Virus record (IMG/VR): IMGVR_UViG_3300013102_000030
Location: 1-64,000 of that record
Source of the DNA: a virus
DNA length: 64,000 nt
Direction: 5' to 3' (one strand)
The translations under genes were made by a program, and so were the position numbers. Positions 1 to 49,052 of the stretch are shown here, piece by piece (position 1 is the first letter of the stretch; each line of letters begins with the position of its first letter). The notes beneath the pieces were generated by a model. It was not told the origin of the DNA. It saw nothing but the letters and a program-made list of their open reading frames with translations, and searched no databases.

Positions 1-48
1 CGGCTGGGAACTCTGTCTCAGGCCAAGCGGTTGCTGGAACGCGGCTAA

Positions 49-91
49 GAAACTTTTGTAAGTTGCGGTGCCGCTCGGACTCTGATAGAGT
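49..91 (+). promoter_or_regulatory. Promoter with inverted box abutting -35
   Basis: GAAACTTTTGTAAG then TTGCGG-17-TAGAGT. Confidence 0.75.
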
Positions 92-124
92 TTGAGTATC
101 AACAGCGATTCCGTAGGAGGAACC

Positions 125-463
125 ATGGCAGTCACACGTTTGTGGGAAGTCGAGAAGAAGGACCGTCGCAAGTTTCAGGGAGCGTACCGACGCGGCTGGA
201 ACTACTCGGACAACACCGACATCCCGAACCATCAGGGACTGGACGGGAACCCGGACTCCGGTATCCTGTACTGGGGCTGGGAGGATGGCTATCTGGACCG
301 TGCCGCTGACCGTGAGTACGGGCACATGATGCAGGAGCACGACCACAACAACCCGGACGAATGCCAAGCCGTAGAAGATCGGCTGCATGCCGCTTGGCTG
401 GCTACCGTGGAGAAGACTCCCGTCGCTCGTCAGGAAGTCGTAGGCGAGTTCAAAGATAAGTAA
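125..463 (+). CDS. hypothetical early protein
   Basis: ORF 92..463; SD AGGAGG before ATG125. Confidence 0.8.
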   Translation: MAVTRLWEVEKKDRRKFQGAYRRGWNYSDNTDIPNHQGLDGNPDSGILYWGWEDGYLDRAADREYGHMMQEHDHNNPDECQAVEDRLHAAWLATVEKTPVARQEVVGEFKDK

Positions 464-512
464 AAGTTGTAAGGGCTGGCCGGTTGACGGCTGGCCCTTA
501 CTGCTATAGACT
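462..512 (+). promoter_or_regulatory. Cassette element (degenerate box, hairpin, promoter)
   Basis: TAAGGGCTGGCCG/CGGCTGGCCCTTA stem; TTGACG-17-TAGACT. Confidence 0.85.
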
Positions 513-541
513 TTGAATACCGAACCAACTAGGAGGAAATC

Positions 542-772
542 ATGTTCAAGAAAATCCTGACCACCACACACCACAACGGTGTGACCACCGAGGATGTTGT
601 GGAGACCGTTGGCCCTGATCATGTCGAAGCGGACATTGCCGCAGAGATTCGGAACCTGCGTCCGATGACGCGGACGTACGGAAGGATTGCTCACGTGGAG
701 AAGACCATGACCACGTTGGTCATCGTCTACACGTCCGGTACCGTGGAGATCTTCCGGTGGGTGGCTGAATAA
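542..772 (+). CDS. hypothetical early protein
   Basis: ORF with AGGAGG SD after promoter. Confidence 0.8.
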   Translation: MFKKILTTTHHNGVTTEDVVETVGPDHVEADIAAEIRNLRPMTRTYGRIAHVEKTMTTLVIVYTSGTVEIFRWVAE

Positions 773-993
773 TGTCAGCACTGAAGCGCATGGTGGCGCG
801 GCTCGATGGCCGGAACAAGCGCACGTCTGCCGGATTCGTTACCACTACAGCGGAACTGGCGAAGATCCTGCCGGAACTCTCCAAGCTGGTATCCGTGTCC
901 GTCATCGAGAAGGAGCGGTATCCGTATCCGGTTGCCAATGAGATCGACATCGAAATCAAATTCAGCTTGACACTGGAGCGGGACAAGCTGTAA
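772..993 (+). CDS. hypothetical protein
   Basis: TAATG stop/start coupling. Confidence 0.7.
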   Translation: MSALKRMVARLDGRNKRTSAGFVTTTAELAKILPELSKLVSVSVIEKERYPYPVANEIDIEIKFSLTLERDKL

Positions 994-996
994 GCT
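963..996 (+). promoter_or_regulatory. Hairpin promoter without box, inside 3' end of upstream gene
   Basis: CAGCTTG/CAAGCTG stem; TTGACA-18-TAAGCT. Confidence 0.7.
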
Positions 997-1030
997 GGTT
1001 CTACCAACAACAACCGTCCTAGGAGGACAA

Positions 1031-1366
1031 ATGCCGCAGACTCTGAATGACATCATCGATCTCTCCATCCAGCCGGAGCTTGACTTCAGCAAGATTGAGG
1101 CGTACGGTTGTCGTATGGCGGGATGCCAGACCGATGGCATCACCATCAACCGCGCAACGGAGTACGTTCTCCGGATCGGTGGTTACCAGCGGAGGGTTTA
1201 CAACTGGGAGCAGTCCGGTGGCAACTCCCGGATGTACGTCAAGACGGGTTGGGGAGAGCGTTCTTTCCTCCCGGAGGAAGCTGTTACGCTTCTGACCTAC
1301 GGCAAGCCGGAGTACGGTACGCTGAAACTCGTGGCACATTCCGTGCAGGTTGCGGATGCCGCTTAG
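1031..1366 (+). CDS. hypothetical early protein
   Basis: ORF; GTCCTAGGAGGAC SD. Confidence 0.8.
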   Translation: MPQTLNDIIDLSIQPELDFSKIEAYGCRMAGCQTDGITINRATEYVLRIGGYQRRVYNWEQSGGNSRMYVKTGWGERSFLPEEAVTLLTYGKPEYGTLKLVAHSVQVADAA

Positions 1367-1378
1367 CTCTGATACTGT
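1350..1378 (+). promoter_or_regulatory. Promoter
   Basis: TTGCGG-17-TACTGT, similar to 63-91. Confidence 0.6.
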
Positions 1379-1405
1379 TTGACTACCAACAACACAGGAG
1401 GAACC

Positions 1406-1693
1406 ATGAGCCAGTCGCACGAAACGATCGAACTGAACATCGAGACCATCCTCACTCTGGACGACCAGAACGAGCCGCAGGCCATCACCGTTTCCGGTAC
1501 CGGGAACATCCCGCGTTCGGCAGTCCGTGCCATTGCGGAGGAAGCGCTGGAGTCCTTCACCGGAAAGGTCTTGCACGAGTACCGTGTGCAGATGTCTCCC
1601 GTTGAGGAATCGGAAGAGGGAACCGTCTTCGAGATCTACAAGAAGCTGACTTTCGGAACCCGTCCACGGGCACCAATGAGCGCTGCGGAGTAG
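1406..1693 (+). CDS. hypothetical early protein
   Basis: ORF 1379..1693; AGGAGG before ATG1406. Confidence 0.8.
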   Translation: MSQSHETIELNIETILTLDDQNEPQAITVSGTGNIPRSAVRAIAEEALESFTGKVLHEYRVQMSPVEESEEGTVFEIYKKLTFGTRPRAPMSAAE

Positions 1694-1701
1694 CTGCCGC
1701 A

Positions 1702-1758
1702 GTTACAAAACTTTCAAAAGGGATCGGGCTTGCGGCTCGGTCCCTTTTGCTGTAGTCT
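1702..1758 (+). promoter_or_regulatory. Cassette element
   Basis: GTTACAAAACTTTC; 15-bp stem; TTGCGG-17-TAGTCT. Confidence 0.9.
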
Positions 1759-1788
1759 TTGATTACCAACAACGGCTAGGAGGCCACC

Positions 1789-2073
1789 GTGAGCGACAAC
1801 TACAACATCAAGATCCAGCGCAAAGACGGCTTTACCCTTCAGGCAGTCCAGAACGTGAGCATCAACACAGCGTGGCGTATCCTGCCGTGGCTCATTGAGG
1901 ATCTGGTTATGCGCGGTGAGGGTAGCGATCCGTCTGCAACCTTGGAGCACATTGCATGCCGTGATGCGGTACGCGATCACTTTGTCCAGCATCCGCACAT
2001 CTGGTTCAACCAGTTGGCAGATACCGGATACGTCTCCCTGTTTGACCTGAGCATCACCATGGACCACAGCTAG
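1789..2073 (+). CDS. hypothetical early protein
   Basis: GTG start with AGGAGG. Confidence 0.8.
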   Translation: MSDNYNIKIQRKDGFTLQAVQNVSINTAWRILPWLIEDLVMRGEGSDPSATLEHIACRDAVRDHFVQHPHIWFNQLADTGYVSLFDLSITMDHS

Positions 2074-2129
2074 TTACAAAACTTTCCTACGGGAGGGAAG
2101 TTGCATCTACGGCTTCCCTCCTGTAGTCT
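2073..2129 (+). promoter_or_regulatory. Cassette element
   Basis: box fused to TAG stop; hairpin; TTGCAT-17-TAGTCT. Confidence 0.9.
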
Positions 2130-2164
2130 TTGATAACCAACCCAAACCGTCCTAGGAGGACAGC

Positions 2165-2668
2165 ATGACCACCTTTTCAGATGACAGCAGCGTTGACGAG
2201 CAGATCGAAAACGTGTACGCACAGGCTACGGATCTCTTCGATCCGGGCACGGTTCTGGACATCGACAACGACGAGTACGCTCGCGGTGTGGTGGAGTTGG
2301 TGACTCGGCTCCTTGGCATGGATGACAAGGAAGATGTTGCGGACATCATCACGGAAAAGCTCAAGCGTCCTGTACCGGAAGACAAGGACATCACGTGGAC
2401 GGATCTTGAACTCCGTCCTAACGGAGAGTTCTACATCGAGCGGCTGAAGGCTTCCACGTCGGAATACTGGCCGTTCCGCGTGGAGCGGTACGATGACATG
2501 GGAGCATGGCGCTTGATCGATGGCACATCGGATGTGCCGATGGCGATCATCCGTCCCGGAACTCAGCACGAATCGTGGCGCGTTACCGTCAACGGCTACG
2601 CGCAGGTCAAGCCGTTTACCAACCTCAAGGCTGCTGTGATCTACGCAGTCGGAGAGTTCAACGGCTGA
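2165..2668 (+). CDS. hypothetical early protein
   Basis: ORF with SD. Confidence 0.8.
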   Translation: MTTFSDDSSVDEQIENVYAQATDLFDPGTVLDIDNDEYARGVVELVTRLLGMDDKEDVADIITEKLKRPVPEDKDITWTDLELRPNGEFYIERLKASTSEYWPFRVERYDDMGAWRLIDGTSDVPMAIIRPGTQHESWRVTVNGYAQVKPFTNLKAAVIYAVGEFNG

Positions 2669-2724
2669 TTACAAAACTTTCTTACAGGGCAGGAGTTGCA
2701 ACAGCGGCTCCTGTCCTGTAGTCT
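2669..2724 (+). promoter_or_regulatory. Cassette element
   Basis: box after TGA; 17-bp stem; TTGCAA-17-TAGTCT. Confidence 0.9.
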
Positions 2725-2755
2725 TTGAGTACCAACCAAGCCGTAGGAGGCAACA

Positions 2756-3226
2756 GTGAAAGACTTTGACATCCGCCGCAAGTTCGTAGGAACCACCGCA
2801 GACGGTGAGCGCGTTTACTTGGATGCTCGCCTTATCTCCTTCACGGGAAGCGAGACCCAGACGGTGGACCACGTGAAGATCACGGAAGGTCAGCGGTTCA
2901 GCATCTCCGGACAGTGTGGACCGGAAGCCACCGGATCGTTTGGGCAGATCGTGGACGATGTCCGCAGGATCACCAAACCGGCAGAGGGTTTGAAGCTGTC
3001 GGATCTCGCGGATCTCGTGGAGATCTGGGAGACCTACCACCTGAACGACATGAAAGCTCTCTGTGAGCATCAGACAGTCAAATGGGAGTACAGCCGTGGT
3101 TACAAGAGCATGGATCTCGCTGGGATCGGTCCTTGCCCTGTCACTGGTTACCGTCCCGGCTCGCTGTGGCTTTACAAGCCGGTTCCGGATTCGGTACTCG
3201 CTCGCGTGCTGGAGATCCTGAGCTAG
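2756..3226 (+). CDS. hypothetical early protein (HLNDM..C.HQ / CP..GY..G motifs, possibly metal-binding)
   Basis: GTG start with SD; Cys/His motifs. Confidence 0.8.
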   Translation: MKDFDIRRKFVGTTADGERVYLDARLISFTGSETQTVDHVKITEGQRFSISGQCGPEATGSFGQIVDDVRRITKPAEGLKLSDLADLVEIWETYHLNDMKALCEHQTVKWEYSRGYKSMDLAGIGPCPVTGYRPGSLWLYKPVPDSVLARVLEILS

Positions 3227-3280
3227 TTACTAAAGTTTCTTAGGAGCGGAGTTGCAATAGCGGCTCCGCTCCTATAGACT
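3226..3280 (+). promoter_or_regulatory. Cassette element
   Basis: GTTACTAAAGTTTC; hairpin; TTGCAA-17-TAGACT. Confidence 0.9.
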
Positions 3281-3308
3281 TTGAGAACCAACCGAACAGG
3301 AGGCCACA

Positions 3309-3524
3309 ATGGCTAAGTTTGTAACCACGATTCCCAACACTCCCTTTCAGCAGCGGATGGCACGCGGCCACCGAATCCGCAACGGGCACGAGTTGGCAGC
3401 GTTGCATGTCAGCGACGATGGGATTCTGTGGCACAAGGTTCGCACGTGCTGTGGTGAGCAGATCCCGGAAACCGTAGAGACGTGGGAGCAGCACACTCCT
3501 ACTCCGGATCGTCCGCAGTTGTAA
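3309..3524 (+). CDS. hypothetical early protein
   Basis: ORF with SD. Confidence 0.75.
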   Translation: MAKFVTTIPNTPFQQRMARGHRIRNGHELAALHVSDDGILWHKVRTCCGEQIPETVETWEQHTPTPDRPQL

Positions 3525-3572
3525 AAGTTTCTTAGGGTAGGAGTTGCAACCGTGACTCCTACCCTGTAAGCT
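3518..3572 (+). promoter_or_regulatory. Cassette element
   Basis: GTTGTAAAAGTTTC containing the stop; hairpin; TTGCAA-17-TAAGCT. Confidence 0.9.
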
Positions 3573-3602
3573 GGTTCTACCAACAAAGCCTAGGAGGGCA
3601 AG

Positions 3603-4073
3603 ATGTCACGGTTTGAAACCGAAGAGGGACGGATCGAAGCAGCTAAGGAAGCTGGACGGAACGTCGCACGGCATGAGATCAAGGATGGCTACGATGAGCC
3701 GCGCAACTGGGATCGGGACGGAGTCCACAACGCGGGAGCGTTTAGCCACCTGTCAGCGGTTGGATTCTCCCGGCTGGGATCTCGGATGTACTCCCAAACC
3801 TTCATCGATGCATACAAGCATGAGTTTGAAAGCCTCTCCAAGGATGTCCCGGAGATCTCCGGAGAGGACGCGCTCGCAACGCTGGAAGGCATGCTAGCGG
3901 CAGAGATCCGCAACGCTGACCAGCTTTCTTACAAGCTCGCAAAAGAGCGAGAGGAATACAAGAAAGATCCGTCGGCGGATACAAAAGCCATCCGCGACAT
4001 GACAGAGATCCGCTACAACAAGGCGGTTCTGAAGAAGCAGGCGCTGAATTTCGCCATTCAGCAGATCCGCTAG
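3603..4073 (+). CDS. hypothetical early protein, helical C-terminus
   Basis: ORF with SD. Confidence 0.8.
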   Translation: MSRFETEEGRIEAAKEAGRNVARHEIKDGYDEPRNWDRDGVHNAGAFSHLSAVGFSRLGSRMYSQTFIDAYKHEFESLSKDVPEISGEDALATLEGMLAAEIRNADQLSYKLAKEREEYKKDPSADTKAIRDMTEIRYNKAVLKKQALNFAIQQIR

Positions 4074-4075
4074 CA

Positions 4076-4132
4076 GTTACAAAACTTTCTTTTAGGAGCG
4101 GAGTTGCATCCGTGACTCCGCTCCTATAGTCT
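4076..4132 (+). promoter_or_regulatory. Cassette element
   Basis: box; hairpin; TTGCAT-17-TAGTCT. Confidence 0.9.
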
Positions 4133-4177
4133 TTACTTATCGGAGCAACCGGCTCCCCTTAGTCCTAGGAGGACAAA

Positions 4178-4501
4178 ATGTCTGAACTCGCTCACCTTCT
4201 CGCTGGTTCCGTTTCGGATGCCAAGGTCACTGAAGCACCAGCCCAGCGGAGCGCAACAGGCTACGGTAGGAAGCTTCCTACTCCCTACATGGTTCGGATC
4301 TCCAACCGCTGGCACCGCGTTTACGTGATGAACTACGGCAACGCTGGTTCTTCCTACGTCGTGATCAACGGCAAAGAGCATTTCCTCTCTCCCGGAGCGG
4401 AGTTGATCGTTGAGACGGTTCGGGACGGCGGAACCGCTCAGGATGCCATCCAGCAGCTTCAGGCATGGCCGGACATCTTCCGTATGGAGGAAGGTCTCTA
4501 A
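4178..4501 (+). CDS. hypothetical early protein (GYG.KLPT.YMV...W.RVY motif)
   Basis: ORF with SD. Confidence 0.8.
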   Translation: MSELAHLLAGSVSDAKVTEAPAQRSATGYGRKLPTPYMVRISNRWHRVYVMNYGNAGSSYVVINGKEHFLSPGAELIVETVRDGGTAQDAIQQLQAWPDIFRMEEGL

Positions 4502-4503
4502 GA

Positions 4504-4559
4504 CTTACAAAAGTTTCCTACCGTAGGGAGTTGCATCCCGTAGCTCCCTACGGTACGCT
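4504..4559 (+). promoter_or_regulatory. Cassette element
   Basis: CTTACAAAAGTTTC; 16-bp stem; TTGCAT-17-TACGCT. Confidence 0.9.
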
Positions 4560-4596
4560 TGATTCATCAGCACAACGAAAGACTTTAGGAGTCGAA

Positions 4597-4839
4597 ATGA
4601 ACAAGAAGACCGCTAGCATCGTCCTTGCAGAGGTTCAGAACTTCGTGGGAGTTACGGAAGGATATTCCGCTCCGCAACTCATGGACAACGACCATGAGGG
4701 ACTTTCGGAAGGTTCATGGTCCATCTGCTTTGAAGGTGGCGGAAACGTGGAGGATTGGGCGCTTCACTTCCGGACAAAGGTTCCCGGAGTTTTCGTTGAA
4801 CCGATCAGTAGCTGCATTCTTGGAGTGCATGACGCGTAG
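4597..4839 (+). CDS. hypothetical early protein
   Basis: within ORF 4465..4839; AGGAG before ATG4597. Confidence 0.8.
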   Translation: MNKKTASIVLAEVQNFVGVTEGYSAPQLMDNDHEGLSEGSWSICFEGGGNVEDWALHFRTKVPGVFVEPISSCILGVHDA

Positions 4840-4848
4840 TCGATGTTT

Positions 4849-4890
4849 TCTGGTTCTGGGATTGACAACCGATCCCAGAGCCGGGATGCT
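4849..4890 (+). promoter_or_regulatory. Hairpin promoter, box degenerate
   Basis: CTGGTTCTGGGAT/ATCCCAGAGCCGG stem; TTGACA-17-GATGCT. Confidence 0.75.
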
Positions 4891-4924
4891 TTTACTACCA
4901 CAAAGCTAGTCCTAGGAGGACACA

Positions 4925-5269
4925 ATGACTGTAGTTCACACTCGCAAGGTTCACGCTGTGAAGCAGGTTCCTTACTCCAACCGGTACGATGTGGAGATGG
5001 TTGGAGGTCCGCTGAACTTCCCGCAGGTTGTTTCTGATGTGGAGGTTTTCAGCAAGTACGTAGGCGGTGGCCGGAGCGTGTGCACAATCCGAGTTCCCAT
5101 GAAAAAGCTTCAGGGAGTCCCGGACTTTCCGTCTCTGACCTCCCGGCAAATGGACGGGATCGCAAAGCGGATCGATGGCCGGTACCGTCTCCAGTACTCC
5201 CAGAGTGGCACGGATTCGGTAGGCCAGCCGGTTTACCTGCGTTCCTACGCATTCAACGCAAACGACTAG
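4925..5269 (+). CDS. hypothetical early protein
   Basis: ORF with SD. Confidence 0.8.
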   Translation: MTVVHTRKVHAVKQVPYSNRYDVEMVGGPLNFPQVVSDVEVFSKYVGGGRSVCTIRVPMKKLQGVPDFPSLTSRQMDGIAKRIDGRYRLQYSQSGTDSVGQPVYLRSYAFNAND

Positions 5270-5280
5270 GAGATCCAGCC

Positions 5281-5550
5281 ATGAGAGCAGAACTCAAGAC
5301 GCGCACGGACACGGTAAAGACTCCCGTAGGGAACGTGCAAGTCAGGCGGTACAGCGCACGCGGTAGCCTCCGTGGAGTCTTCCTAGAGGGCAGGGAGCTA
5401 GGCGAGATCCAAGGGCAAGGGAGGTTTGTCCTAGTCAAGCCGCACAGACGCTACGGGCAGCAGTGGAGGGCAGCTAGCTACGCTGAAGGCATCCGGCAGC
5501 TAGTCAACATTGACGCTCTGGACCATGGGAAAGACAAGGTCTTTCCGTAG
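5281..5550 (+). CDS. hypothetical basic protein
   Basis: within ORF 5080..5550; AGGAG before ATG5281. Confidence 0.75.
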   Translation: MRAELKTRTDTVKTPVGNVQVRRYSARGSLRGVFLEGRELGEIQGQGRFVLVKPHRRYGQQWRAASYAEGIRQLVNIDALDHGKDKVFP

Positions 5551-5605
5551 TTACAAAACTTTCTTAGGAGTAGGGAGTTGCAAAAGCTCCCTACTCTGAT
5601 AGTCT
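5550..5605 (+). promoter_or_regulatory. Cassette element
   Basis: box fused to TAG; hairpin; TTGCAA-16-TAGTCT. Confidence 0.88.
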
Positions 5606-5653
5606 TTACTTATCGCGGTTCGACCGGAGCCGCTGAAGTCCTAGGAGGACACA

Positions 5654-6034
5654 ATGACTGATCACGGATTCATCTCCCTTGGCAAGTTCTCATCCGCACG
5701 GGATTCGATCCTTCACTGGTTGGCAGGTGTGGAGTGGTGCAATGCATCCTCCGGACACGTTGAGGCTCCTACGGGATGGTTTGCCAAGATCTCTTTTCTT
5801 CCGGCAGAGATCCACATCCCAAACACTGAAATCACTTCCGTTCTGGAAGAATGGTTTCAGGATAATCCGGAGGTTACGGACTCTCCGGAACTCCGGAAGG
5901 AACTGGAGGGTTTTTTCATCGTCCGGGAGAACGAACAGGGTTTCGTGTCCGTGGAAGTGTTCCCTACGGAGGCAGCTATGAATGTTGCCTACGGAGCGTT
6001 GGAGGATGCTTTCTCTGAATGGGACGGCGAATAG
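5654..6034 (+). CDS. hypothetical acidic early protein
   Basis: ORF with SD. Confidence 0.8.
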   Translation: MTDHGFISLGKFSSARDSILHWLAGVEWCNASSGHVEAPTGWFAKISFLPAEIHIPNTEITSVLEEWFQDNPEVTDSPELRKELEGFFIVRENEQGFVSVEVFPTEAAMNVAYGALEDAFSEWDGE

Positions 6035-6090
6035 TTACAAAACTTTCTTACCGGCTGGGAATTGCAAGAGCGGTTCCCAGCCTGTAAGGT
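6034..6090 (+). promoter_or_regulatory. Cassette element
   Basis: box fused to TAG; hairpin; TTGCAA-17-TAAGGT. Confidence 0.9.
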
Positions 6091-6126
6091 AGGAACTACC
6101 AACAACCGATGTTCCTAGGAGGAACG

Positions 6127-6477
6127 ATGTACCAGCCGCGTACGCAGTCCAGCAAGTTTCGCAATGAGGATTGCCCTGCTGATGTTCTAGCCATCTATGA
6201 CAACGGCGGAAAGTCCTTTGATCGGTTCACAGTCTTCTATAAGCCTGTTGAGCCTCTGAAGGATCTTAGGGGATGGATTGGCTATCGTGGGATGTCAGAG
6301 CGTCCCAGCAGTCCGCAGGGTTTCGGCATCTATGATGAGATGGAAGCCTACAAGGTAGCACAGTACCGGAACAGGGTTTACCGGGAATCCTTCCAATGGT
6401 CAAAGCTTCCGGAGGAAGTGAAGAGCGTAGTTCGCGCCGATTGTGCGGACATCGTGGAAGCTCGCAAGCAGAAGTAA
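6127..6477 (+). CDS. hypothetical early protein (YDNGG.S.DR.TV...PQGFG motif)
   Basis: ORF 6109..6477; SD before ATG6127. Confidence 0.8.
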   Translation: MYQPRTQSSKFRNEDCPADVLAIYDNGGKSFDRFTVFYKPVEPLKDLRGWIGYRGMSERPSSPQGFGIYDEMEAYKVAQYRNRVYRESFQWSKLPEEVKSVVRADCADIVEARKQK

Positions 6478-6484
6478 GCATTTC

Positions 6485-6512
6485 GGAAGGGGAGCAAACC
6501 GGCTCCCCTTCC
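6485..6512 (+). other. Intergenic hairpin without promoter
   Basis: GGAAGGGGAGC/GCTCCCCTTCC. Confidence 0.6.
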
Positions 6513-6539
6513 TCCCTAACAAGTCCTGAGGAGGACAAA

Positions 6540-6749
6540 ATGGATTACTGGATCAATAAGCGCGGTTTCTCTCTGGTTGGCACTACGGAAGCCGGAGTCT
6601 TTCTAGCTCGGAAGGAACGGGAACGGAAGTTCCTGCTAGTCCGTGAAGACTGGTTCACGGGAGAGCTTCGGCAGTTTACTCCCATAGTCCGAACGGAAGC
6701 GGAAGCGCTTTCCTACCTGTCCAACTCTTCTACCCTTGCAACCGCTTAG
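6540..6749 (+). CDS. hypothetical protein
   Basis: within ORF 6396..6749; GAGGAGG before ATG6540. Confidence 0.75.
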   Translation: MDYWINKRGFSLVGTTEAGVFLARKERERKFLLVREDWFTGELRQFTPIVRTEAEALSYLSNSSTLATA

Positions 6750-6758
6750 GAGCCTGCT

Positions 6759-7052
6759 GTGAAGTCTGTAATAACCTCTCTGGAGCCGAACCGCGAAGAC
6801 GCTACGTTGGGTCTCACTCCCTACGCTGTGACCATCAAAGGATCTCCGGAACCACGCGTCAAGATCGTGGAATCGCGGGACATCACAACGGGCAAGGCTA
6901 CGGTGCGAATCATAGCCATGGCAGCGGCTGGGATGCCTGTCCTAGCGCTTCCCACGCTGGACCAGATCGCTAGGCGGATCTTGCCCGGAGCACGCGTTAC
7001 AGCGCGGCTGCATGGCTCCGCAGCGTTTACTAGGGTTTACGCAGCGGACTAG
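6759..7052 (+). CDS. hypothetical protein
   Basis: GTG start with AGGAG. Confidence 0.75.
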   Translation: MKSVITSLEPNREDATLGLTPYAVTIKGSPEPRVKIVESRDITTGKATVRIIAMAAAGMPVLALPTLDQIARRILPGARVTARLHGSAAFTRVYAAD

Positions 7053-7062
7053 ATCCACAGGA

Positions 7063-7119
7063 CTTACAAAAGTTTCATAACTTCAGGAGTTGCGCCTAAC
7101 GGTGTGACTCCTGTAGTCT
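7063..7119 (+). promoter_or_regulatory. Cassette element
   Basis: box; hairpin; TTGCGC-18-TAGTCT. Confidence 0.88.
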
Positions 7120-7163
7120 TTCTATATCGGTTCAAGGGGAACCGCAGAGCTTAGGAGTTACAA

Positions 7164-7475
7164 ATGTTCGGACACGTTCAGACCACGTTCAATCGCTCGG
7201 AAGTTGAAACGCTGTGCGAGAAGCTGACAGCGGCAGCGGTAGCGCTGGAAATGCTGGCAGAGGATGACAAGATCCTGTTTCATCCCGGATCTACCACCAA
7301 CGGACATGCTCCGGCTTTGAGCGTCTTCAACGCTAACGCGGAAGGTCACCGGAAGGTTGTACGCGTTGATTGGCTCCCTGATTTCAAGATCGGAGACAGC
7401 CGGAACACTGTTGGCCGGATCTTGTCCCCTCTCGTCGTTGGCATGACTGCGGCAGCGGACTTCCTGAATCCGTAG
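7164..7475 (+). CDS. hypothetical early protein
   Basis: ORF with SD. Confidence 0.8.
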   Translation: MFGHVQTTFNRSEVETLCEKLTAAAVALEMLAEDDKILFHPGSTTNGHAPALSVFNANAEGHRKVVRVDWLPDFKIGDSRNTVGRILSPLVVGMTAAADFLNP

Positions 7476-7531
7476 TTACAAAACTTTCCCAGTGTGGCGG
7501 ATTAGGAAATAGTCCGCCACACTGGTAACGT
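7475..7531 (+). promoter_or_regulatory. Cassette element
   Basis: box fused to TAG; 16-bp stem; TAGGAA-17-TAACGT. Confidence 0.85.
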
Positions 7532-7569
7532 AGTACTTACCAAACCGCTTGAAGTTCCTAGGAGGAACA

Positions 7570-7947
7570 ATGAAACTGCATTCCGACAAACTGACCACCG
7601 CTGAAATCCGCGCATGCTTGGAGCGTGCCATTGCTAAGGGCAGGGTTTCGCGTCTGGTGGACTTCTCCGAATTGGCAGAGCGTGGGAGCCGTACGCGTGC
7701 TAACGCGTGGGAGATCCGGCTTGAATGGCTGGGAACGAAAGAAAAGGGAGATGGCCGGAAGTGGACTAACTCCGGTACGCGTGGCAGCGGAGAGGCTGCA
7801 AGCGGTGGCTACGCTGCATTCTGGGATGAGTGGGGCTGGTTCATCTGGGAACTGTACGCGGTAGACTCCGAATTGGTATTCGGACACTACAAAACCGAAA
7901 CGGAGTTTCACGAGATGACTCGTTTCAAGTTCGCGGTGGCTGAGTAG
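7570..7947 (+). CDS. hypothetical early protein
   Basis: ORF 7549..7947; SD before ATG7570. Confidence 0.8.
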   Translation: MKLHSDKLTTAEIRACLERAIAKGRVSRLVDFSELAERGSRTRANAWEIRLEWLGTKEKGDGRKWTNSGTRGSGEAASGGYAAFWDEWGWFIWELYAVDSELVFGHYKTETEFHEMTRFKFAVAE

Positions 7948-8003
7948 TTACAAAACTTTGTTACGGGAGCGGAGTTGCTTAGGTGGCTCCGCTCCTGTAG
8001 TCT
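7947..8003 (+). promoter_or_regulatory. Cassette element
   Basis: box fused to TAG; hairpin; TTGCTT-17-TAGTCT. Confidence 0.9.
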
Positions 8004-8050
8004 TTCTATATCGGTTCAGAGGGAACCGAAAAGCTGACTTAGGAGTCACA

Positions 8051-8458
8051 ATGTCTGAAGGTAAGCAGGTCACAGCGGAAAACCTCAACTCTGTAATGGA
8101 GTTTGATCACGTGCTGCACATTGCTAACGGGATCGCTGAGGATGTCGCGGAATCCTTCTACTTTGAGGTTACCCAGTTCAAACTGGAAGATGGCCGCTGG
8201 GAAACCGAATACATCCTTCCTGAAGGCTGGCAGGTCATGCGTGGCTACACAGGGCAGCATGGCTACAATGGTCCGGACATGCATAACTCTGAGTTCATCG
8301 GCGGTGGCATGGCTAGGGACATTCTGGAGGCTCCCGGCCTGTATGTTGCCCTTGCCATCTCCGCTAGCTGTGGAGGCTTGGAAGATGGCTGTGCAGAAGA
8401 TGACTGCACCTGTGAGGGTGAGGGTTGGGTAGTAGCTTACAAGCTTGACGGCGAGTAG
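8051..8458 (+). CDS. hypothetical early protein (GYTGQ.GY.G..MH.SEFIGG motif)
   Basis: ORF 7958..8458; AGGAG before ATG8051. Confidence 0.8.
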   Translation: MSEGKQVTAENLNSVMEFDHVLHIANGIAEDVAESFYFEVTQFKLEDGRWETEYILPEGWQVMRGYTGQHGYNGPDMHNSEFIGGGMARDILEAPGLYVALAISASCGGLEDGCAEDDCTCEGEGWVVAYKLDGE

Positions 8459-8516
8459 TTACAAAAGTTTCTTAGGAAGGTCCGGAGTTGTAATGACTCC
8501 GGATCTCCTATAGTCT
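8458..8516 (+). promoter_or_regulatory. Cassette element
   Basis: box fused to TAG; hairpin; TTGTAA-17-TAGTCT. Confidence 0.9.
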
Positions 8517-8553
8517 TTACTTATCGGAACAATCCGCTAACTTAGGAGTCAAG

Positions 8554-8886
8554 ATGACTTACGAAATTACCACGTTTGAGCAGTACAACCCTTTCTCCCG
8601 TGTGGCTGATCGTAGCGTGCTGGTGATCGCTGATGAGCACGTGCGTAACTTCCTCTCTCACCTTCCGGAGGAAGCGCAGGAGATCATCCTAGAGGAAGCG
8701 GAGTGCAACGGTGGCACGCGTTTTGTGGGCAAGGATGGCAAGTACAACCACATCAAAAAGCGGATCTCATACGCGGATCTCCGGACTCCTACGGCAGCGG
8801 AGGAAGACGCAGAGTTTGAGGCTCGCCGGATGGCTGTAGAAGACCGGGAAGACCGGGAAGCGTTGCGCGGACGCTGCGGCGACTAA
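8554..8886 (+). CDS. hypothetical early protein
   Basis: ORF with SD. Confidence 0.8.
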   Translation: MTYEITTFEQYNPFSRVADRSVLVIADEHVRNFLSHLPEEAQEIILEEAECNGGTRFVGKDGKYNHIKKRISYADLRTPTAAEEDAEFEARRMAVEDREDREALRGRCGD

Positions 8887-8941
8887 TTACAAAACTTTGT
8901 TACGGCTGGGAGTTGCGCGGATGGCTCCCAGCCTGTAAGTT
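8887..8941 (+). promoter_or_regulatory. Cassette element
   Basis: box after TAA; hairpin; TTGCGC-17-TAAGTT. Confidence 0.9.
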
Positions 8942-8988
8942 TGACTTATCGGTTCAAGGGGAACCGATGAAAGACTTTAGGAGTCAAG

Positions 8989-9468
8989 ATGAGCAAGCTG
9001 GAAATCGGATCGCTGGTCAACGTTGAACTGCTGGCAGCAGGTTGGCACGGAGCGGAAGTTACCGGAGTCTCTGAGGATGGCAAGCTGTACAGCGTGAAGC
9101 TGCTGGAAGCTTCCGATGGCTACGAAGTAGGGCAGGAGCTTGGAGGCTTCCATGTAGATCCTACGGCTGATTACTTTGGAGATGCTGAGGCTCCCAACAT
9201 CAAAGCTGCTGAGGTTTACATCATGCGAGCGGATCGCACTCCGGAGATGTCATGGTGGCAGGCAGGGGAGAGCATCGGAGTTAGCCACTCTGCTAAGTCT
9301 CTTCCGGCCGCTGTAGGCTCCCTGCTGACCTGCTGGGAGGTAGAAGGACGTAGGAGCCGTGGAGAGCACACGGAGACTCCAGAGGCTGCGGCAGCGCTGC
9401 TGACAGGTGGCAGGTACTGGAGCGCTGACAAGCTGGTGACCTACTGGTTCCGGTTCACTGGTCAGTAA
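8989..9468 (+). CDS. hypothetical early protein, possible SH3/Tudor-like N-terminus
   Basis: LEIGSLVNV...W.GAEVTGV....YSVKL pattern. Confidence 0.75.
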   Translation: MSKLEIGSLVNVELLAAGWHGAEVTGVSEDGKLYSVKLLEASDGYEVGQELGGFHVDPTADYFGDAEAPNIKAAEVYIMRADRTPEMSWWQAGESIGVSHSAKSLPAAVGSLLTCWEVEGRRSRGEHTETPEAAAALLTGGRYWSADKLVTYWFRFTGQ

Positions 9469-19720: not shown

Positions 19721-19923
19721 AATTCGAATTCAGAGTCTTCCAGAACAACCAATCAGTACCAGTTCACACCGAAGAGTCGGATGTGGAGAACCCAGCACCG
19801 AAATGCCATGAGCTTTCCGTCAAGTTCCACCTTGGCCCTCCCACCTATTCGGTGGATTACGGCTGGCGGTACACTGACGGCTATGTATCTGCTTCACCCC
19901 TAGAACAAGAAAAGGACAAATGA
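19717..19923 (+). CDS. hypothetical protein (paralog of 19266..19502)
   Basis: FE..VFQ....VHTE...HLG...YTDG. Confidence 0.75.
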   Translation: MKFEFRVFQNNQSVPVHTEESDVENPAPKCHELSVKFHLGPPTYSVDYGWRYTDGYVSASPLEQEKDK

Positions 19924-20444
19924 CTTTCCAGATCATCAAGGGCGATCTGTTCGACCCCGCCCACAACTTCAACGCGCTCGCACAGGGTGTCAACACCAAG
20001 GGCATCATGGGCGCTGGCATTGCGGTGCCGTTCCGGGAGAAGTTCCCTCTCATGTACCGTGAGTACATCCAGTGGTGCGCCAAGTACGAGGCCGTTCTTC
20101 CGGGCCTCCTGCACGCCTTCTACGACGTTGACGGTGGAGTCCATCCCTCACGTCCTGCCGTCTACAACCTGTTCTCTCAGGTCCAGCCCGGAAAGGACGG
20201 CTCCTACGCCCTGCTGGAACGCGCCACCTTCCTCATGCTGAAGGAAGCAGAGGATTCTCTCTCAGTCTTTACGGCTTTTGATTCAACCCGTCCTGAAGAT
20301 CCTGACCTGATTGACGGCAAGTTCCGCGTTGGCCTGCCATGGATCGGCTGTGGCATTGCCGGTCTCCAGCGTCACAACGTTGAGCACATCTTCCGCCGAT
20401 ACCTCACCGACTCTGAGGTTGAGTTCACTCTCGTAGAGCAGTAA
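19920..20444 (+). CDS. macrodomain protein (ADP-ribose binding/hydrolase, DarG/TARG1-like group)
   Basis: IIKGDLF; GVN..G.MGAGIA..F..KFP; LP.IGCGIAGL. Confidence 0.88.
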   Translation: MTFQIIKGDLFDPAHNFNALAQGVNTKGIMGAGIAVPFREKFPLMYREYIQWCAKYEAVLPGLLHAFYDVDGGVHPSRPAVYNLFSQVQPGKDGSYALLERATFLMLKEAEDSLSVFTAFDSTRPEDPDLIDGKFRVGLPWIGCGIAGLQRHNVEHIFRRYLTDSEVEFTLVEQ

Positions 20445-22488: not shown

Positions 22489-22911
22489 ATCTCATTAGAA
22501 CTAGTACTGATTCTCTCCCTGCTGGCCCACATGGTGGGGGACTATCTGATTCAGAACCACTGGATGGCCTCTCAGAAGACCTCACAGTGGTTGCCAGCAG
22601 TTGCCCATGGTGTCACGTACGCCATCCCGTTCATATTCATTGTTCCGTCGTGGCCTGCATTGTTGATCATTGCGGGAACTCATATAGTTATCGACCGCTA
22701 CCGACTGGCGCGTCACGTGGTATGGTTCAAGAACCAGCTAGCGCCCAAGGACTTCCGGCCTCTCACTCCGGCACTGAAGACCACCGGATACGCTGAGAGC
22801 ACTCCCGTGTGGCTCTCCACATGGCTGATGATCATTGCGGACAACACGCTCCACCTGATCATCAACACGCTTGCCATCGTATTCCTTGGACACGTCGGGC
22901 TGATGTGGTGA
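22489..22911 (+). CDS. DUF3307-type membrane protein; probable ATC start
   Basis: H..GDY..Q..WMA..K, H...Y, H..IDR, DN..H motifs; conserved His lies upstream of ATG22531. Confidence 0.75.
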   Translation: MSLELVLILSLLAHMVGDYLIQNHWMASQKTSQWLPAVAHGVTYAIPFIFIVPSWPALLIIAGTHIVIDRYRLARHVVWFKNQLAPKDFRPLTPALKTTGYAESTPVWLSTWLMIIADNTLHLIINTLAIVFLGHVGLMW

Positions 22912-23051: not shown

Positions 23052-23400
23052 CTCCTACGCAAAGAAGGTCAAAGACCTTTGCCACAAGCTCAACATCGAA
23101 CTGGAGGACTACTCCAGCCTCAGTAAGTACGCGGTACGTCTGAAAGCTCCCCAAGGACAGTTGTTACTGTTCGTGGAGGAGAATGAGTACAGAATCTCCA
23201 GAGTTCGTCAGAAGGGTGGACGAAAGGAGCCGTTCTGGAGCCGAGTGTTCGAAGTCGTAGAAGGAGGACTGGTTTCTGCTGAAGAATGGCAGCGGATGGA
23301 TGCCTCATACAGGCGTGAGAAAGAAAAGGGAAGACTCAATCCGGAGTCAACTCACGACACATACGTCAAAGGGTGGTTCACTGGAGTCACGCCAGTTTGA
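23044..23400 (+). CDS. hypothetical protein
   Basis: 3' part of ORF 22933..23400; GTG23044. Confidence 0.7.
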   Translation: MADSYAKKVKDLCHKLNIELEDYSSLSKYAVRLKAPQGQLLLFVEENEYRISRVRQKGGRKEPFWSRVFEVVEGGLVSAEEWQRMDASYRREKEKGRLNPESTHDTYVKGWFTGVTPV

Positions 23401-23425
23401 CACTGAACAAGAAAAGGATTAGACT
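23397..23425 (+). promoter_or_regulatory. SigA-type promoter for NAD operon, near-leaderless
   Basis: TTGACA-17-TAGACT, ATG 9 nt downstream. Confidence 0.8.
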
Positions 23426-23434
23426 CAACACATA

Positions 23435-24343
23435 ATGATTACCTTCAAAGCTAAAGACACATCCGGCGAGAACATCAATTCCGCCCTCCACGAGTTCACC
23501 TTCCCCGCTGGGGAGAAGCACATCAAGCAGACAGAGGATCGGGAGATCCAAGATGTCGAAATCGCCATCTGGCAGCCGACTCCGGACTCCATCCACGATG
23601 ACCTGTTCACACTCGGTATGTGGATGAACTTCATCATCCAGACGGATGTTGAGGTTGCCAAATCCAACTCCTCATTCACTGGTACCCACACCGTTCTGCT
23701 CATGCCCTACGTTCCCGGTGCACGCGCTGACCGTGGAATCCCGTTCGGTCTGGGTACGTACGCAAAGTACATCAATGACCTGATGGTTGACCAGATCATC
23801 ATCTTTGATCCTCACTCCCAGCGTACTCCTGAAGTCCTTCACGGCTTTGATAACCTTACGGTTCTCTACCCTGAAGATCTGTTCGCACTGGGCCACATGG
23901 CTGCTGTCATCAATGGCTACACGGGCATCATTGCCCCTGACAAGGGCGCTGTCCTGCGTGCTGAAGGTGTAGCCAAGGCTGCAAACCTTCCGGTCTACAC
24001 TGCCACCAAGGAACGGGACGAAGCCACCGGTAAGCTCTCCAACTTCAAGATTGAAGGTCTGCCTACTGACGGCACCTTCCTTGTGGTCGATGACATCTGT
24101 GACGGAGGCGGAACCTTCCTTGGTCTCGCTGACGCAGCAGGTCTTGAGAAGAACCAGCTTGACTTGTACGTCTCGCACGGTGTATTCTCAAAGGACGCGC
24201 TGAAGAACCTCAAGGAGAAGTTCGGACACGTCTTCACCACCAACTCCTTTGCTCCCAAGCGGGAACTCAACGACGATGACGAATACCCGATCTACCGTCG
24301 CTTTGATGTGATCCGTCTGATGGAAAGCAAAATCAAGTACTGA
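23435..24343 (+). CDS. ribose-phosphate pyrophosphokinase-like (probable ADPR-PP synthetase, NARP1 Adps type)
   Basis: FP.GE; MPYVPGARADR; DPHS; APDKGA; VVDDICDGGGTF; VSHGVFS. Confidence 0.9.
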   Translation: MITFKAKDTSGENINSALHEFTFPAGEKHIKQTEDREIQDVEIAIWQPTPDSIHDDLFTLGMWMNFIIQTDVEVAKSNSSFTGTHTVLLMPYVPGARADRGIPFGLGTYAKYINDLMVDQIIIFDPHSQRTPEVLHGFDNLTVLYPEDLFALGHMAAVINGYTGIIAPDKGAVLRAEGVAKAANLPVYTATKERDEATGKLSNFKIEGLPTDGTFLVVDDICDGGGTFLGLADAAGLEKNQLDLYVSHGVFSKDALKNLKEKFGHVFTTNSFAPKRELNDDDEYPIYRRFDVIRLMESKIKY

Positions 24344-24507
24344 TGGGCTGGTGGATCGCGCTCAACGTAGTTCTCTACATTGCCGCAGCCGTAACCCAAT
24401 TCGTATTCGGACTGTGGATTGCTGCCCTGATCCTCGTGATCTTGGCCGCACTGCTCACATTGATTCTGTCAGGCGGAACCATCAACGTCTTTGACGCATT
24501 CGACTAA
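24343..24507 (+). CDS. 54-aa two-TM membrane protein (absent from ORF track)
   Basis: TGATG coupling; MGWWIALNVVLYIAAAVTQFVFGLWIAALILVILAALLTLILSGG... Confidence 0.7.
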   Translation: MGWWIALNVVLYIAAAVTQFVFGLWIAALILVILAALLTLILSGGTINVFDAFD

Positions 24508-24523
24508 CTGAAAGGCTATACCA

Positions 24524-26032
24524 ATTACTGCTGATCTTGCTTTCCTCAACCCGCTGCTGGACACCGACTCCTACAAGCTCTCCCACTTCAAGATGTACCC
24601 TGAAGGTCTGGAAGAGGTAGAGTCCAACTTCACGTCCCGAAAGTCCCGTGTTGACGGTGTGGCTCACGTCCTCCAGTTCGGACTTCAGGCATGGCTCGCT
24701 GAGCGTACCCGAGCATGGGATATGTTCTTCTCATCCCCCAAGGATGAAGTCATTGCCGAGTACAAGGAGAACATCTCCACCTTCGTCAATCCCGGTTTCA
24801 CGCTGGAGCACGTGGAAGCTCTGCACGATCTGGGCTACCTCCCGCTCCAGTTCTCACAGGTTCCTGAAGGCACCCTTGTCCCCATCGGTGTCCCGTCCGT
24901 CCTGATCCGCTCCACCCACAAGAAGTTCGCATGGCTGGTCAACTACATCGAGTCCGACCTGTCCGCAGGAATCTGGCACCCGTCCACCGTCGCAACTCTC
25001 GCATGGCGGCTCCGTCGCGTCTTTGAGAAGGCCGCAAAGGAAACCGGTGAGAGCACTGAGGGCGTTGACTTCCAGCTCCACGACTTCTCCTACCGTGGAC
25101 ACGTCAACCGTGCAGCGGCCAAGGCAGCAGGCGCAGCCCATCTGATCTCCTTCAAGGGATCTGATGCTGTTCCGGCTGTGCCGTGGATCAAGCGCTACTA
25201 CCCCGGAGCACAGAACGGCCTGCTTGCAGCCTCCGTTCCCGCTACCGAGCACTCCGTGATGTGCGCCTACGGTCGGGCCAATGAGATTGACGCGTTCCAG
25301 CACCAGCTTGACACGTTCCCCACCGGCATCCTGTCCGTGGTCTCTGACACCTACAGCCTGAAAGATGTCATCACCAAGTTCCTGCCGGAACTGCGTGACC
25401 AGATCATGGGACGTGACGGCAAGCTCGTGATCCGTCCTGACTCCGGTGATCCGGCAGACATCATCTGCGGCACCAACCGCGAGTTCGGTACCAGCGGTGA
25501 CGACTTCTACGCAAAGGGCGCGATTGAAGCCCTGTGGGAGTTCGCTGGTGGTACGATCAACGAAGAGGGCTACAAGGTTCTGGACTCCCACGTCGGCCTG
25601 ATCTACGGTGACGGCATGTACAAGGAGCGCATTGAGGACATCAACGCACGTCTGAAGGCCAAGGGCTTTGCCTCCACCAACTGGGTTGCCGGTATCGGTT
25701 CCTTCTCCTACCAGATGATCACCCGAGACACCTTCGGTTCCGCTGTGAAGGCTACGTTCGTTGTCGTCAACGGTGAAGAGCGCAACATCCAGAAGGACCC
25801 GGAGACCGACGACGGCACCAAGAAGTCCGCTACGGGCCGACTGGCCGTGCTGTCCAAGGCTGACGGTACCCTGTACCTCGTGCAGGAAGCCACGGCTGAA
25901 CAGAGGGCCAACAGCCTGATTCAGCCGGTCTGGGAGAACGGCAAGTTCATCAAGCGCCAGTCCTTCAACGACATCCGCGAGAATGCAAAGCGCTGGACTG
26001 AGATCCTTGAGCGCAACGGCTCGCTTACGTAA
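24524..26032 (+). CDS. nicotinamide phosphoribosyltransferase-like (probable NARP1 Namat type); ATT start
   Basis: LLDTDSYKLSH upstream of ATG24593; HDFSYRG; PATEHSVM; SVVSDTY; IRPDSGDP; IYGDG. Confidence 0.9.
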   Translation: MTADLAFLNPLLDTDSYKLSHFKMYPEGLEEVESNFTSRKSRVDGVAHVLQFGLQAWLAERTRAWDMFFSSPKDEVIAEYKENISTFVNPGFTLEHVEALHDLGYLPLQFSQVPEGTLVPIGVPSVLIRSTHKKFAWLVNYIESDLSAGIWHPSTVATLAWRLRRVFEKAAKETGESTEGVDFQLHDFSYRGHVNRAAAKAAGAAHLISFKGSDAVPAVPWIKRYYPGAQNGLLAASVPATEHSVMCAYGRANEIDAFQHQLDTFPTGILSVVSDTYSLKDVITKFLPELRDQIMGRDGKLVIRPDSGDPADIICGTNREFGTSGDDFYAKGAIEALWEFAGGTINEEGYKVLDSHVGLIYGDGMYKERIEDINARLKAKGFASTNWVAGIGSFSYQMITRDTFGSAVKATFVVVNGEERNIQKDPETDDGTKKSATGRLAVLSKADGTLYLVQEATAEQRANSLIQPVWENGKFIKRQSFNDIRENAKRWTEILERNGSLT

Positions 26033-47972: not shown

Positions 47973-48352
47973 TGAAATGGGTAATGGATCATGCAGCATA
48001 CGAGCGGATGGTCAACCATCCCGATGAAATGGTGGGACGCTATCTTACCATCGTTGCTGCCAAGCTCAAGATCCTTGCCAAAGCGCAGGCCGGATACAAA
48101 ACCGGAGCGCTACGCAACTCCATCAACTACCGCGTGGTAAATAGCGGTGGTGGATTGGTTGCTTTCGTGGGATCTGACAACCGAGTTGCCTTCATGCATC
48201 ATGAGGGAACGCGCCCCCACATCATTGCCGCGAGACGTGCCCAAACATTGAGGTTTTATTCTCGTGGTAGAATAGTGTATGCAAAAGTTGTGCGTCATCC
48301 CGGTACAAGACCTAACAAGTACCTGACGGATAACCTACGAAAAGTCATCTGA
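47972..48352 (+). CDS. neck/tail completion protein (HK97 gp10-like)
   Basis: TG.LR.SI; H.EGTRPH.I; V.HPGT.PN.YL. Confidence 0.7.
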   Translation: MKWVMDHAAYERMVNHPDEMVGRYLTIVAAKLKILAKAQAGYKTGALRNSINYRVVNSGGGLVAFVGSDNRVAFMHHEGTRPHIIAARRAQTLRFYSRGRIVYAKVVRHPGTRPNKYLTDNLRKVI

Positions 48353-48384
48353 CGCAATACGAAATAACGACACAGGAGCCACAC

Positions 48385-48732
48385 ATGGCCGCTTCACGCA
48401 AAATCAAGTCCTTCGCCGCCCCAGTTGCCGAAACTGAGGAAACCGTTGTAGAACCCATTGAGTTCGACGTAGCCGGAGAGACTGTTGAGGCACTGGGAGA
48501 AGTTCCCGGAGCCGTACTCCTTGACTTTATCGCCAATTCTGGCAGCGATAGCTCCTCCGATACTGCTAGCGCAATCAACACTTACCTCAAGGACTCCTTT
48601 GATGAGGAAAACGGTAAGAAGTTCCAGAAGATCATTCGTGACCCCAAGAACAAGGTCAAGATTGAGCACCTTTCTGAAATCGTAGCACACCTTGTGGAGG
48701 AACGCGCCTCGCGCCCTACGGCAGCGTCCTAG
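48385..48732 (+). CDS. tail assembly chaperone (G-type)
   Basis: position before tape measure; ends SRPTAAS. Confidence 0.75.
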   Translation: MAASRKIKSFAAPVAETEETVVEPIEFDVAGETVEALGEVPGAVLLDFIANSGSDSSSDTASAINTYLKDSFDEENGKKFQKIIRDPKNKVKIEHLSEIVAHLVEERASRPTAAS

Positions 48733-49052
48733 CAGTAGGACGCGATTTTCTGAAGTGGTGGTCGTATATTGACGGCCACCACCTCCGTAAAGGGGTCGAT
48801 CTGTTGAAACTCTTCCAGACTCTGGATGAGTACAGGTCTTTCAATATCATAGACGATATCCTAGTCGAAGAGGCTATACGGGATGCGGAAGTGCACGATT
48901 CTTTGACCAAGATTCGAAAGCACCTTGACAAATCATACCTCATGGAGGCAGACGACTCACCGTATAAGGACATTGAGGGATACATTCCCGGTGTCTATGA
49001 CGAAGCAACCGACGAAGGATTTGGCGGTTGGGGAATAGCACCGATGCAGTAA
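48717..49052 (+). CDS. tail assembly chaperone extension (GT-type), probably via -1 frameshift
   Basis: -1 frame open from 48678 to 49052; no SD at TTG48804. Confidence 0.6.
   Translation, partial: YGSVLAVGRDFLKWWSYIDGHHLRKGVDLLKLFQTLDEYRSFNIIDDILVEEAIRDAEVHDSLTKIRKHLDKSYLMEADDSPYKDIEGYIPGVYDEATDEGFGGWGIAPMQ

Follow-up and report, generated by a model that had tools for sequence, protein, structure and literature searches.

Probable AUU initiation of the Namat gene in a NARP1 operon of the Arthrobacter-phage clade

A class of genes is known in which translation starts at an AUH codon (AUA, AUC or AUU). In infC and pcnB of Escherichia coli, and in infC of Streptomyces, which starts at ATC, the near-cognate codon stands at normal spacing behind a good Shine-Dalgarno sequence; in infC (UAA GGU AUU) it also lies close behind the stop codon of the upstream cistron, and starts of the infC type have been kept in several lineages and are regularly mis-annotated (PMC5472188, PMC3592434). 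Similarly, the conserved non-canonical starts of cvfC1 (AUU), ccpN and citZ (AUA) in Staphylococcus aureus are led by strong Shine-Dalgarno sequences (PMC13009471). Here we report on a stretch of 64,000 nucleotides (hereafter the window), positions 1 to 64,000 of a complete phage genome of 174 kb from IMG/VR (record IMGVR_UViG_3300013102_000030), and on the start of its gene for nicotinamide ADP-ribose transferase (Namat), the second enzyme of NARP1, a pathway by which phages rebuild NAD+ against bacterial defences. Translation of this gene very probably starts at ATT 24524, on the + strand, and the gene shares with those of the infC type the near-cognate codon behind a good Shine-Dalgarno sequence at normal spacing, the upstream stop codon close by, the conservation in several lineages and the mis-annotation. 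Comparison with its relatives makes the ATT-started Namat a well-supported new member of the class of AUH-initiated genes. In a literature search of limited coverage, no paper on conserved AUU starts in phage genes was found.

Two differences from the described cases should be noted. The odd codon of infC is part of a demonstrated feedback loop through initiation factor 3 (IF3) and has been kept over very wide distances, whereas the Namat codon alternates with ATG and TTG among close relatives and belongs to a gene of a phage anti-defence pathway. The S. aureus sites were mapped by Ribo-RET and reporters, whereas the ATT start of the window is proposed from comparative sequence. As for output, AUU reaches roughly 10-25% of AUG in published reporter work. 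In E. coli reporters, AUU yields 6-8 times less protein than AUG, an output that doubles when the AUU is placed directly after a translated cistron (PMC3592434); the conserved AUU and AUA starts of S. aureus, with their strong Shine-Dalgarno sequences, give ~10% of AUG (PMC13009471), which is the best quantitative guide to the probable output of the ATT described here.

The long Namat frame is closed on its 5' side by an in-frame TGA (24509..24511, + strand). The codons that follow are AAG GCT ATA (24518) CCA ATT (24524) ACT GCT GAT CTT GCT TTC CTC AAC CCG and then CTG (24554) CTG (24557) GAC ACC GAC TCC TAC AAG CTC TCC CAC TTC AAG ATG (24593). No ATG, GTG or TTG was found in this frame between 24512 and 24592; near-cognate codons are limited there to ATA, ATT and the two CTG. 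The first canonical start is ATG 24593..24595 (+ strand; Met24 counted from ATT), 23 codons 3' of ATT 24524, and it is there that a program-made list of open reading frames (ORFs) begins the gene. Counted from the proposed initiation codon (24524..24526, + strand), the coding sequence extends over 24524..26032 (+ strand) and comprises 502 amino acids and the stop codon, with Pfam matches to NAMPT_N and NAPRTase.

The homology of the encoded protein with its family begins before the first ATG. The block N-P-L-L-x-T-D-S-Y-K-L-S-H is encoded 5' of ATG 24593, and the NAMPT_N match begins at residue 15 of the stop-to-stop translation, likewise 5' of the first Met, with NAPRTase further on. Within the block, GAC TCC TAC (24566..24574, + strand) encodes Asp15 and Tyr17, counted from ATT, which in an alignment with the solved structure 9W5X correspond to Asp13' and Tyr15' (residues 13 and 15) of the Namat of phage SpbetaL1. 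In the SpbetaL1 enzyme, the partner subunit contributes both residues, across the dimer: Asp13' forms part of the pocket wall, and Tyr15' stacks against the nicotinamide ring on the side opposite Phe189 (PMC12774641). Because a conserved block with the Asp/Tyr pair of the nicotinamide pocket precedes the first ATG, the start is expected to lie upstream of 24593. A previous reading of this DNA from its letters alone (the sequence-only reading) had noticed the motif LLDTDSYKLSH before ATG 24593, the closing TGA at 24509 and the presence of only ATA, ATT and CTG in between, and had proposed a non-canonical start, most likely AUU; the sequence agrees on each of these points, and the proposed start gained support from the comparison of relatives.

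This comparison covered 26 related IMG/VR loci together with the phages Atuin and Racecar; 16 of the loci are close relatives, with 65-79% protein identity. The genome is related to the Arthrobacter phages Atuin, with 77% identity over this region, and Racecar, Mimi and Talia1610, with 72%. In the 16 close loci a start-type codon sits 4-5 codons before NPLL (8 in the window), and each of them has a GAAAG-type site 6-12 nt before that codon, or TAAGGA in the locus with TTG. The homologous codons at this one aligned position read ATG in six lineages (L004/5, L006, L007/8, L009/14, L010 and L011/12), TTG in one (L019) and ATT in five, namely the window, Atuin, the Racecar group and the two IMG/VR contigs L003 and L013. 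The open upstream frame contains no ATG, GTG or TTG in the window, Atuin, L003 or L013. Thus, conservation of the ATT in homologues, which the sequence-only reading had named as a check of its proposal, extends to five lineages, and since ATT with its Shine-Dalgarno sequence occupies the position of ATG or TTG with theirs in sister phages, ATT is clearly the best candidate for the start. It should be added that, compared with all its relatives, the Namat of the window has four extra codons directly after ATT ACT (a 12-nt insert, 24530-24541), which leave the spacing from the Shine-Dalgarno sequence to ATT unaltered.

The pattern of codon variation indicates that the region between ATT and the first ATG is translated and under purifying selection at the protein level. 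The comparison took 12 non-identical close loci and the 15 codons that begin with the Asn of NPLL and end just before the window ATG (N-P-L-L-x-T-D-S-Y-K-L-S-H-x-x). Third positions were variable in all 15, while residues were invariant in 12 of the 15, and the serines of the block swapped between TCN and AGY codons.

The Shine-Dalgarno sequence GAAAGG (24510..24515, + strand) lies 8 nt before ATT, as the sequence-only reading had it. Its strength was scored as the predicted pairing of the 17 nt before the start codon with a generic actinobacterial 16S rRNA 3' tail. The pairing at ATT 24524 amounts to -7.2 kcal/mol, compared with medians of -6.7 in a set of 60 long window ORFs and -3.0 in random positions, 7.6% of which reach a value as good. 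The strength of the site is therefore normal for this phage. In all five ATT lineages GAAAGG is kept perfectly, with a spacing of 7-9 nt and a pairing of -7.2 to -9.6 kcal/mol. The idea that GAAAGG is the general ribosome-binding site of the phage was discarded, as there are just 10 copies of the hexamer on the + strand and the site of most genes is of the (T)AGGAG(G) type; the argument therefore rests on pairing energy and not on the hexamer. Masking of the start region by RNA structure was also rejected, because the region folds less well than shuffled sequence (z = +1.2). Elsewhere in the window, a run of small genes (1-9000, + strand) has near-identical ribosome-binding regions (CCTAGGAGGAC.. 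or CTTAGGAGTC..).

The probable course of initiation can be outlined as follows. GAAAGG would place the ribosome on ATT 24524, which the initiator tRNA of the host would read as a near-cognate start, giving a product of 502 amino acids. The weak ATT would be expected to lower the output of Namat relative to that of Adps, the enzyme encoded upstream, and, like any AUU start, to be sensitive to IF3. In most lineages, ribosomes that end translation of a small ORF 13-16 nt upstream may aid initiation of Namat by coupling. We infer that initiation at ATT is weak but functional, and that such coupling sustains part of its output.

The layout of the operon is consistent with coupling. A promoter-like TTGACA-17-TAGACT, identified by its consensus match alone (10 of 12 positions), lies at 23397..23425 (+ strand), and between it and ATT there is no promoter-like site of comparable quality. 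It is followed by the Adps-like (PRPP-synthetase-like, PRPP being phosphoribosyl pyrophosphate) gene at 23435..24343 (+ strand), which has a Pfam Pribosyltran match and distant matches to ribose-phosphate pyrophosphokinases, and which is found upstream of Namat in all five related genomes tested. Next comes an ORF for a small two-helix membrane protein of 54 amino acids (24343..24507, + strand), the ATG of which overlaps the Adps stop codon (TGATG) and the TAA of which stands 16 nt before ATT 24524. With this overlap, and with the only strong promoter-like site before Adps, the three cistrons look translationally chained. Fusion with the small ORF, or frameshifting from it, was considered and rejected, because both frames are closed, by TAA and then by TGA, and because the ORF is absent from Atuin.

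The small membrane ORF is kept in Racecar, L003, L013 and L019, where it ends in ..FD* (..LD* in L019). Its stop codon is found 13-16 nt before the Namat start in the window, Racecar, L003 and L013, all with ATT, and in L019, with TTG. All the ATG lineages are without it; in these, either Adps ends 3-61 nt before Namat or another small ORF precedes Namat. That the weak starts are mostly found 13-16 nt behind the small ORF suggests translational coupling.

Some observations weigh against this interpretation. Atuin has ATT without the small ORF, with Namat 60 nt after Adps and a promoter-like TTGACG-17-TAGACT before the Namat start, so that coupling can be no requirement. The ATT is not kept everywhere, being replaced by ATG or TTG in sister lineages, and selection for the weak codon as such is therefore only a possibility. 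In addition, the loci are related to each other, so that the link between weak start and small ORF may represent perhaps two or three independent events, and the branching order of the ATT, ATG and TTG loci is not resolved by the protein tree. In this maximum-likelihood tree the ATT loci fall in two subclades, each also holding an ATG lineage, and L019 (TTG) is the nearest relative of Racecar (ATT). The mixture of ATT, ATG and TTG within subclades indicates that the codon changed several times among the three without moving.

A further idea, which would add to initiation at ATT rather than replace it, is that the codon is an evolved sensor, at which IF3 holds Namat down until the fidelity of initiation in the host falls. 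The sequence-only reading had gone in this direction when it suggested that NAD recycling may be tied to the translation-initiation state of the host. There is a precedent, since IF3 represses non-canonical starts both in E. coli and in the actinobacterium Streptomyces, where infC itself starts at ATC (PMC5472188); moreover, ATT persists in five lineages with end branches of 0.04-0.26 substitutions per site, all of them with the perfect GAAAGG. However, in a shallow clade, ATT has given way to ATG or TTG in sister phages on at least two occasions, no IF3 is encoded by the phage (no match to IF3_C was found in its genome), and other genes of the same phages, unrelated to NAD metabolism, appear to have weak starts of the same kind. 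A link between NAD recycling and the initiation state through IF3 is thus only possible, and the evolved sensor is in our view unlikely. If it were true, the start codon would sense the state of the host. An initiator tRNA of the phage's own for AUH codons was also considered and rejected, because its tRNA-Ile(GAU), one of 30 phage tRNAs, is an ordinary elongator, with a paired 1-72 end and without the three G-C pairs of the anticodon stem. The 30 tRNAs lie at 84-105 kb of the complete genome. An odd 82-nt tRNA-Met(CAT) was predicted by ARAGORN at 97762-97843 of this genome, with an unpaired 1-72 end, a T stem of 4 bp and an extra arm.

The other weak starts were found by screening the whole genome against four relatives for homology running 5' of the first canonical start. 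The first conservation screen was dominated by shadow ORFs, which were filtered by hand, and the candidates were checked singly. A genome-wide tally of codons at predicted starts was rejected as too noisy, as internal Met, Val and Leu contaminate it. A conserved HNH-like Cys/His gene of 94 amino acids, outside the window (129722-130006 of the complete genome), has no canonical start until codon 77. Its start codon is ATC in this genome and in Atuin, ATT in G001, ATA in L071 and ATG in G002 and L072; in the present genome the ATC is preceded by GAAAGG at 8 nt, and the codon-position pattern is that of coding sequence. In Atuin, this gene falls in an unannotated gap of 343 bp (135505-135847). 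A gene for a DUF3307 membrane protein (window 22489-22911, + strand) seems to start at ATC 22489, which has AAGGA at 6 nt; the preceding ORF ends in a TAA 9 nt before this ATC. There is no ATG in the gene until 22531, past the first transmembrane helix, and the proposed start is 13 codons before an H-x-x-G-D motif; ATC is also the start codon in G001, and most of ~40 more distant homologues have ATG or GTG at precisely this codon.

A third case is a conserved ORF of ~55 amino acids, where the same start codon reads ATG in the present genome (132865), GTG in Atuin (138657), CTG in Racecar (140208) and ATT in G001 (57389), preceded by a GGAGG-type site in all four. Finally, a CCA-adding enzyme (tRNA nucleotidyltransferase, PolyA_pol family; 114564-115391 of the complete genome) probably starts at CTG, which has a strong Shine-Dalgarno sequence (-9.8). 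The codon is CTG also in Atuin, in a CTGA overlap with the upstream stop codon, and ATG in G001, but the case is ambiguous, as Racecar and G002 start ~30 codons later. Near-cognate starts (ATC, ATT, ATA or CTG) therefore recur in this clade, in at least three unrelated genes and probably in a fourth, so that a weak start is no peculiarity of NAD metabolism.

On a broader view, the weak start would not be a product of drift but would set the dosage or timing of expression, in the NARP1 operon and more generally in the Arthrobacter-phage clade, where Namat and a few other AUH and CUG genes would be held low by the IF3 of the host and by their need for upstream translation; we consider this quite doubtful. 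If it were true, Namat and the other AUH and CUG genes would be released when infection, or an abortive defence that depletes NAD+, lowers the fidelity of initiation. In the course of the screen, two overlapping conserved ORFs were also observed at 48334-49049 of the window (+ strand). The second of these (48678-49049) is without a canonical start for 42 codons, yet in all five genomes its conservation begins at the very first residues. The pair has the look of programmed frameshifting as in tail-assembly chaperones rather than of an unusual start codon.

Among the explanations that would dispense with ATT 24524, one is that the ATT lineages have lost the start codon and their gene is in decay, or that ATA 24518 or one of the CTG codons at 24554 and 24557 is the start. 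These codons are in frame, and weak starts could be a first step to gene loss. Decay is nevertheless hard to reconcile with a frame of 502 codons that is intact in five diverged lineages, and in which the synonymous-dominated pattern includes the N-terminus. As to the other codons, ATA 24518 is 2 nt from the Shine-Dalgarno sequence, has a score of -3.7 and is not found in relatives, whereas the CTG codons are without a Shine-Dalgarno site and are replaced by CTC or CTT in relatives. This explanation is therefore very improbable.

Little room is left as well for a start at ATG 24593, which would give a protein of 479 amino acids. This is the first canonical start in frame, and it is what automatic gene callers choose, as in the GenBank record of Atuin, where gene 63 is annotated from the downstream ATG. 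However, it has no Shine-Dalgarno site (a pairing of +0.3 kcal/mol), its equivalent is CAG in Racecar and L019, and the 23 codons that it would leave out are strongly constrained and encode the Asp/Tyr half of the nicotinamide pocket; we regard it as exceedingly improbable. Lastly, the window comes from a metagenome-derived viral contig, which might call for a sequencing or assembly error hiding a true ATG, but the probability of this is negligible, because ATT stands at the homologous codon in two independently sequenced groups of cultured phages (Atuin, and Racecar, with Mimi and Talia1610 matching the query in the same way as Racecar) and in two further metagenome contigs, and its presence in five independent assemblies makes a base-calling error very unlikely.

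Initiation at ATT 24524 has direct consequences for annotation. The sequence-only reading had predicted that gene callers would truncate the enzyme, and they do mishandle it, in both directions. GenBank gene 63 of Atuin is too short, lacking the first 19 residues with the Asp/Tyr pair, and the records of the Racecar type are over-extended, gene 71 of Racecar beginning at a TTG 30 nt upstream of ATT, inside the small ORF and without a ribosome-binding site. Published annotations thus shorten or mis-start the Namat of a pathway that phages use against bacterial defences; cloning from database models would give a crippled enzyme or miss a gene altogether, as with the HNH-like gene, which has no annotation in Atuin, and surveys of NARP1 based on called proteins will carry wrong N-termini. 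The value of the locus lies mainly in annotation and in a tractable system for start-codon turnover. It offers a clear comparison, since within a shallow clade a single start interchanges among ATG, TTG and ATT, with gain or loss of a small ORF. Moreover, as Atuin and its host are in culture, a workable system exists for the effect of start codon and coupling on the Adps:Namat ratio.

With regard to the identity of the enzyme, the sequence-only reading had called the gene NAMPT-like. The homology to NAMPT_N and NAPRTase stands, but Namat, an enzyme of the NARP1 pathway already described (bioRxiv 10.1101/2024.02.11.579819; PMC12774641), is a better name for it than classical NAMPT, judging from its best match to SpbetaL1 Namat, its catalytic core, its Adps-like neighbour and the lack of an NMNAT gene. 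The best solved match is SpbetaL1 Namat (9W5W/9W5X, E 4e-128), compared with ~1e-69 for human NAMPT. In the alignment with 9W5X, DSYK, HDFSYRG, GSDAVPA, ATEHSVM and IRPDSGD are all conserved, as is the catalytic core of the NAMPT-like fold, including Asp13', Tyr15', Phe189, Arg192, Asp215, the catalytic His, Arg306 and Asp308. The clamp-helix motif of Namat has been defined as G-S-X-phi-X-phi-X-phi-T-R-D. The corresponding region of the window enzyme reads GSFSYQMITRD, which fits in length and at 9 of 11 positions, with Phe at position 3, Met (not Tyr or Phe) at position 7 and Ile at position 8; human NAMPT has a longer GSGGG.. version here. Position 7 is aromatic in the clamp consensus. As a Namat, the enzyme would be predicted to make NAD+ from ADPR-PP and nicotinamide.

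The NARP1 of phages Bas63 and SpbetaL1 has the same two-gene layout and the same enzyme family (bioRxiv 10.1101/2024.02.11.579819), but the window differs from both in the 54-aa membrane ORF between Adps and Namat and in the ATT start. NARP2, which consists of NAMPT/NadV and NMNAT in Vibrio phage KVP40, has a homologous NAMPT fold with the same nicotinamide pocket as the window enzyme; however, it uses PRPP and needs the NMNAT partner, whereas the neighbour of the window gene is Adps-like. A search of the complete 174-kb genome for NMNAT (PF01467, CTP_transf_like) gave no match; run on 14 control genomes, it gave a match in every one. An assignment to NARP2 was accordingly rejected. A gene for a macro-domain protein lies at 19920-20444 of the window (+ strand), 3 kb upstream of the NARP1 operon, and fits the ADP-ribose theme.

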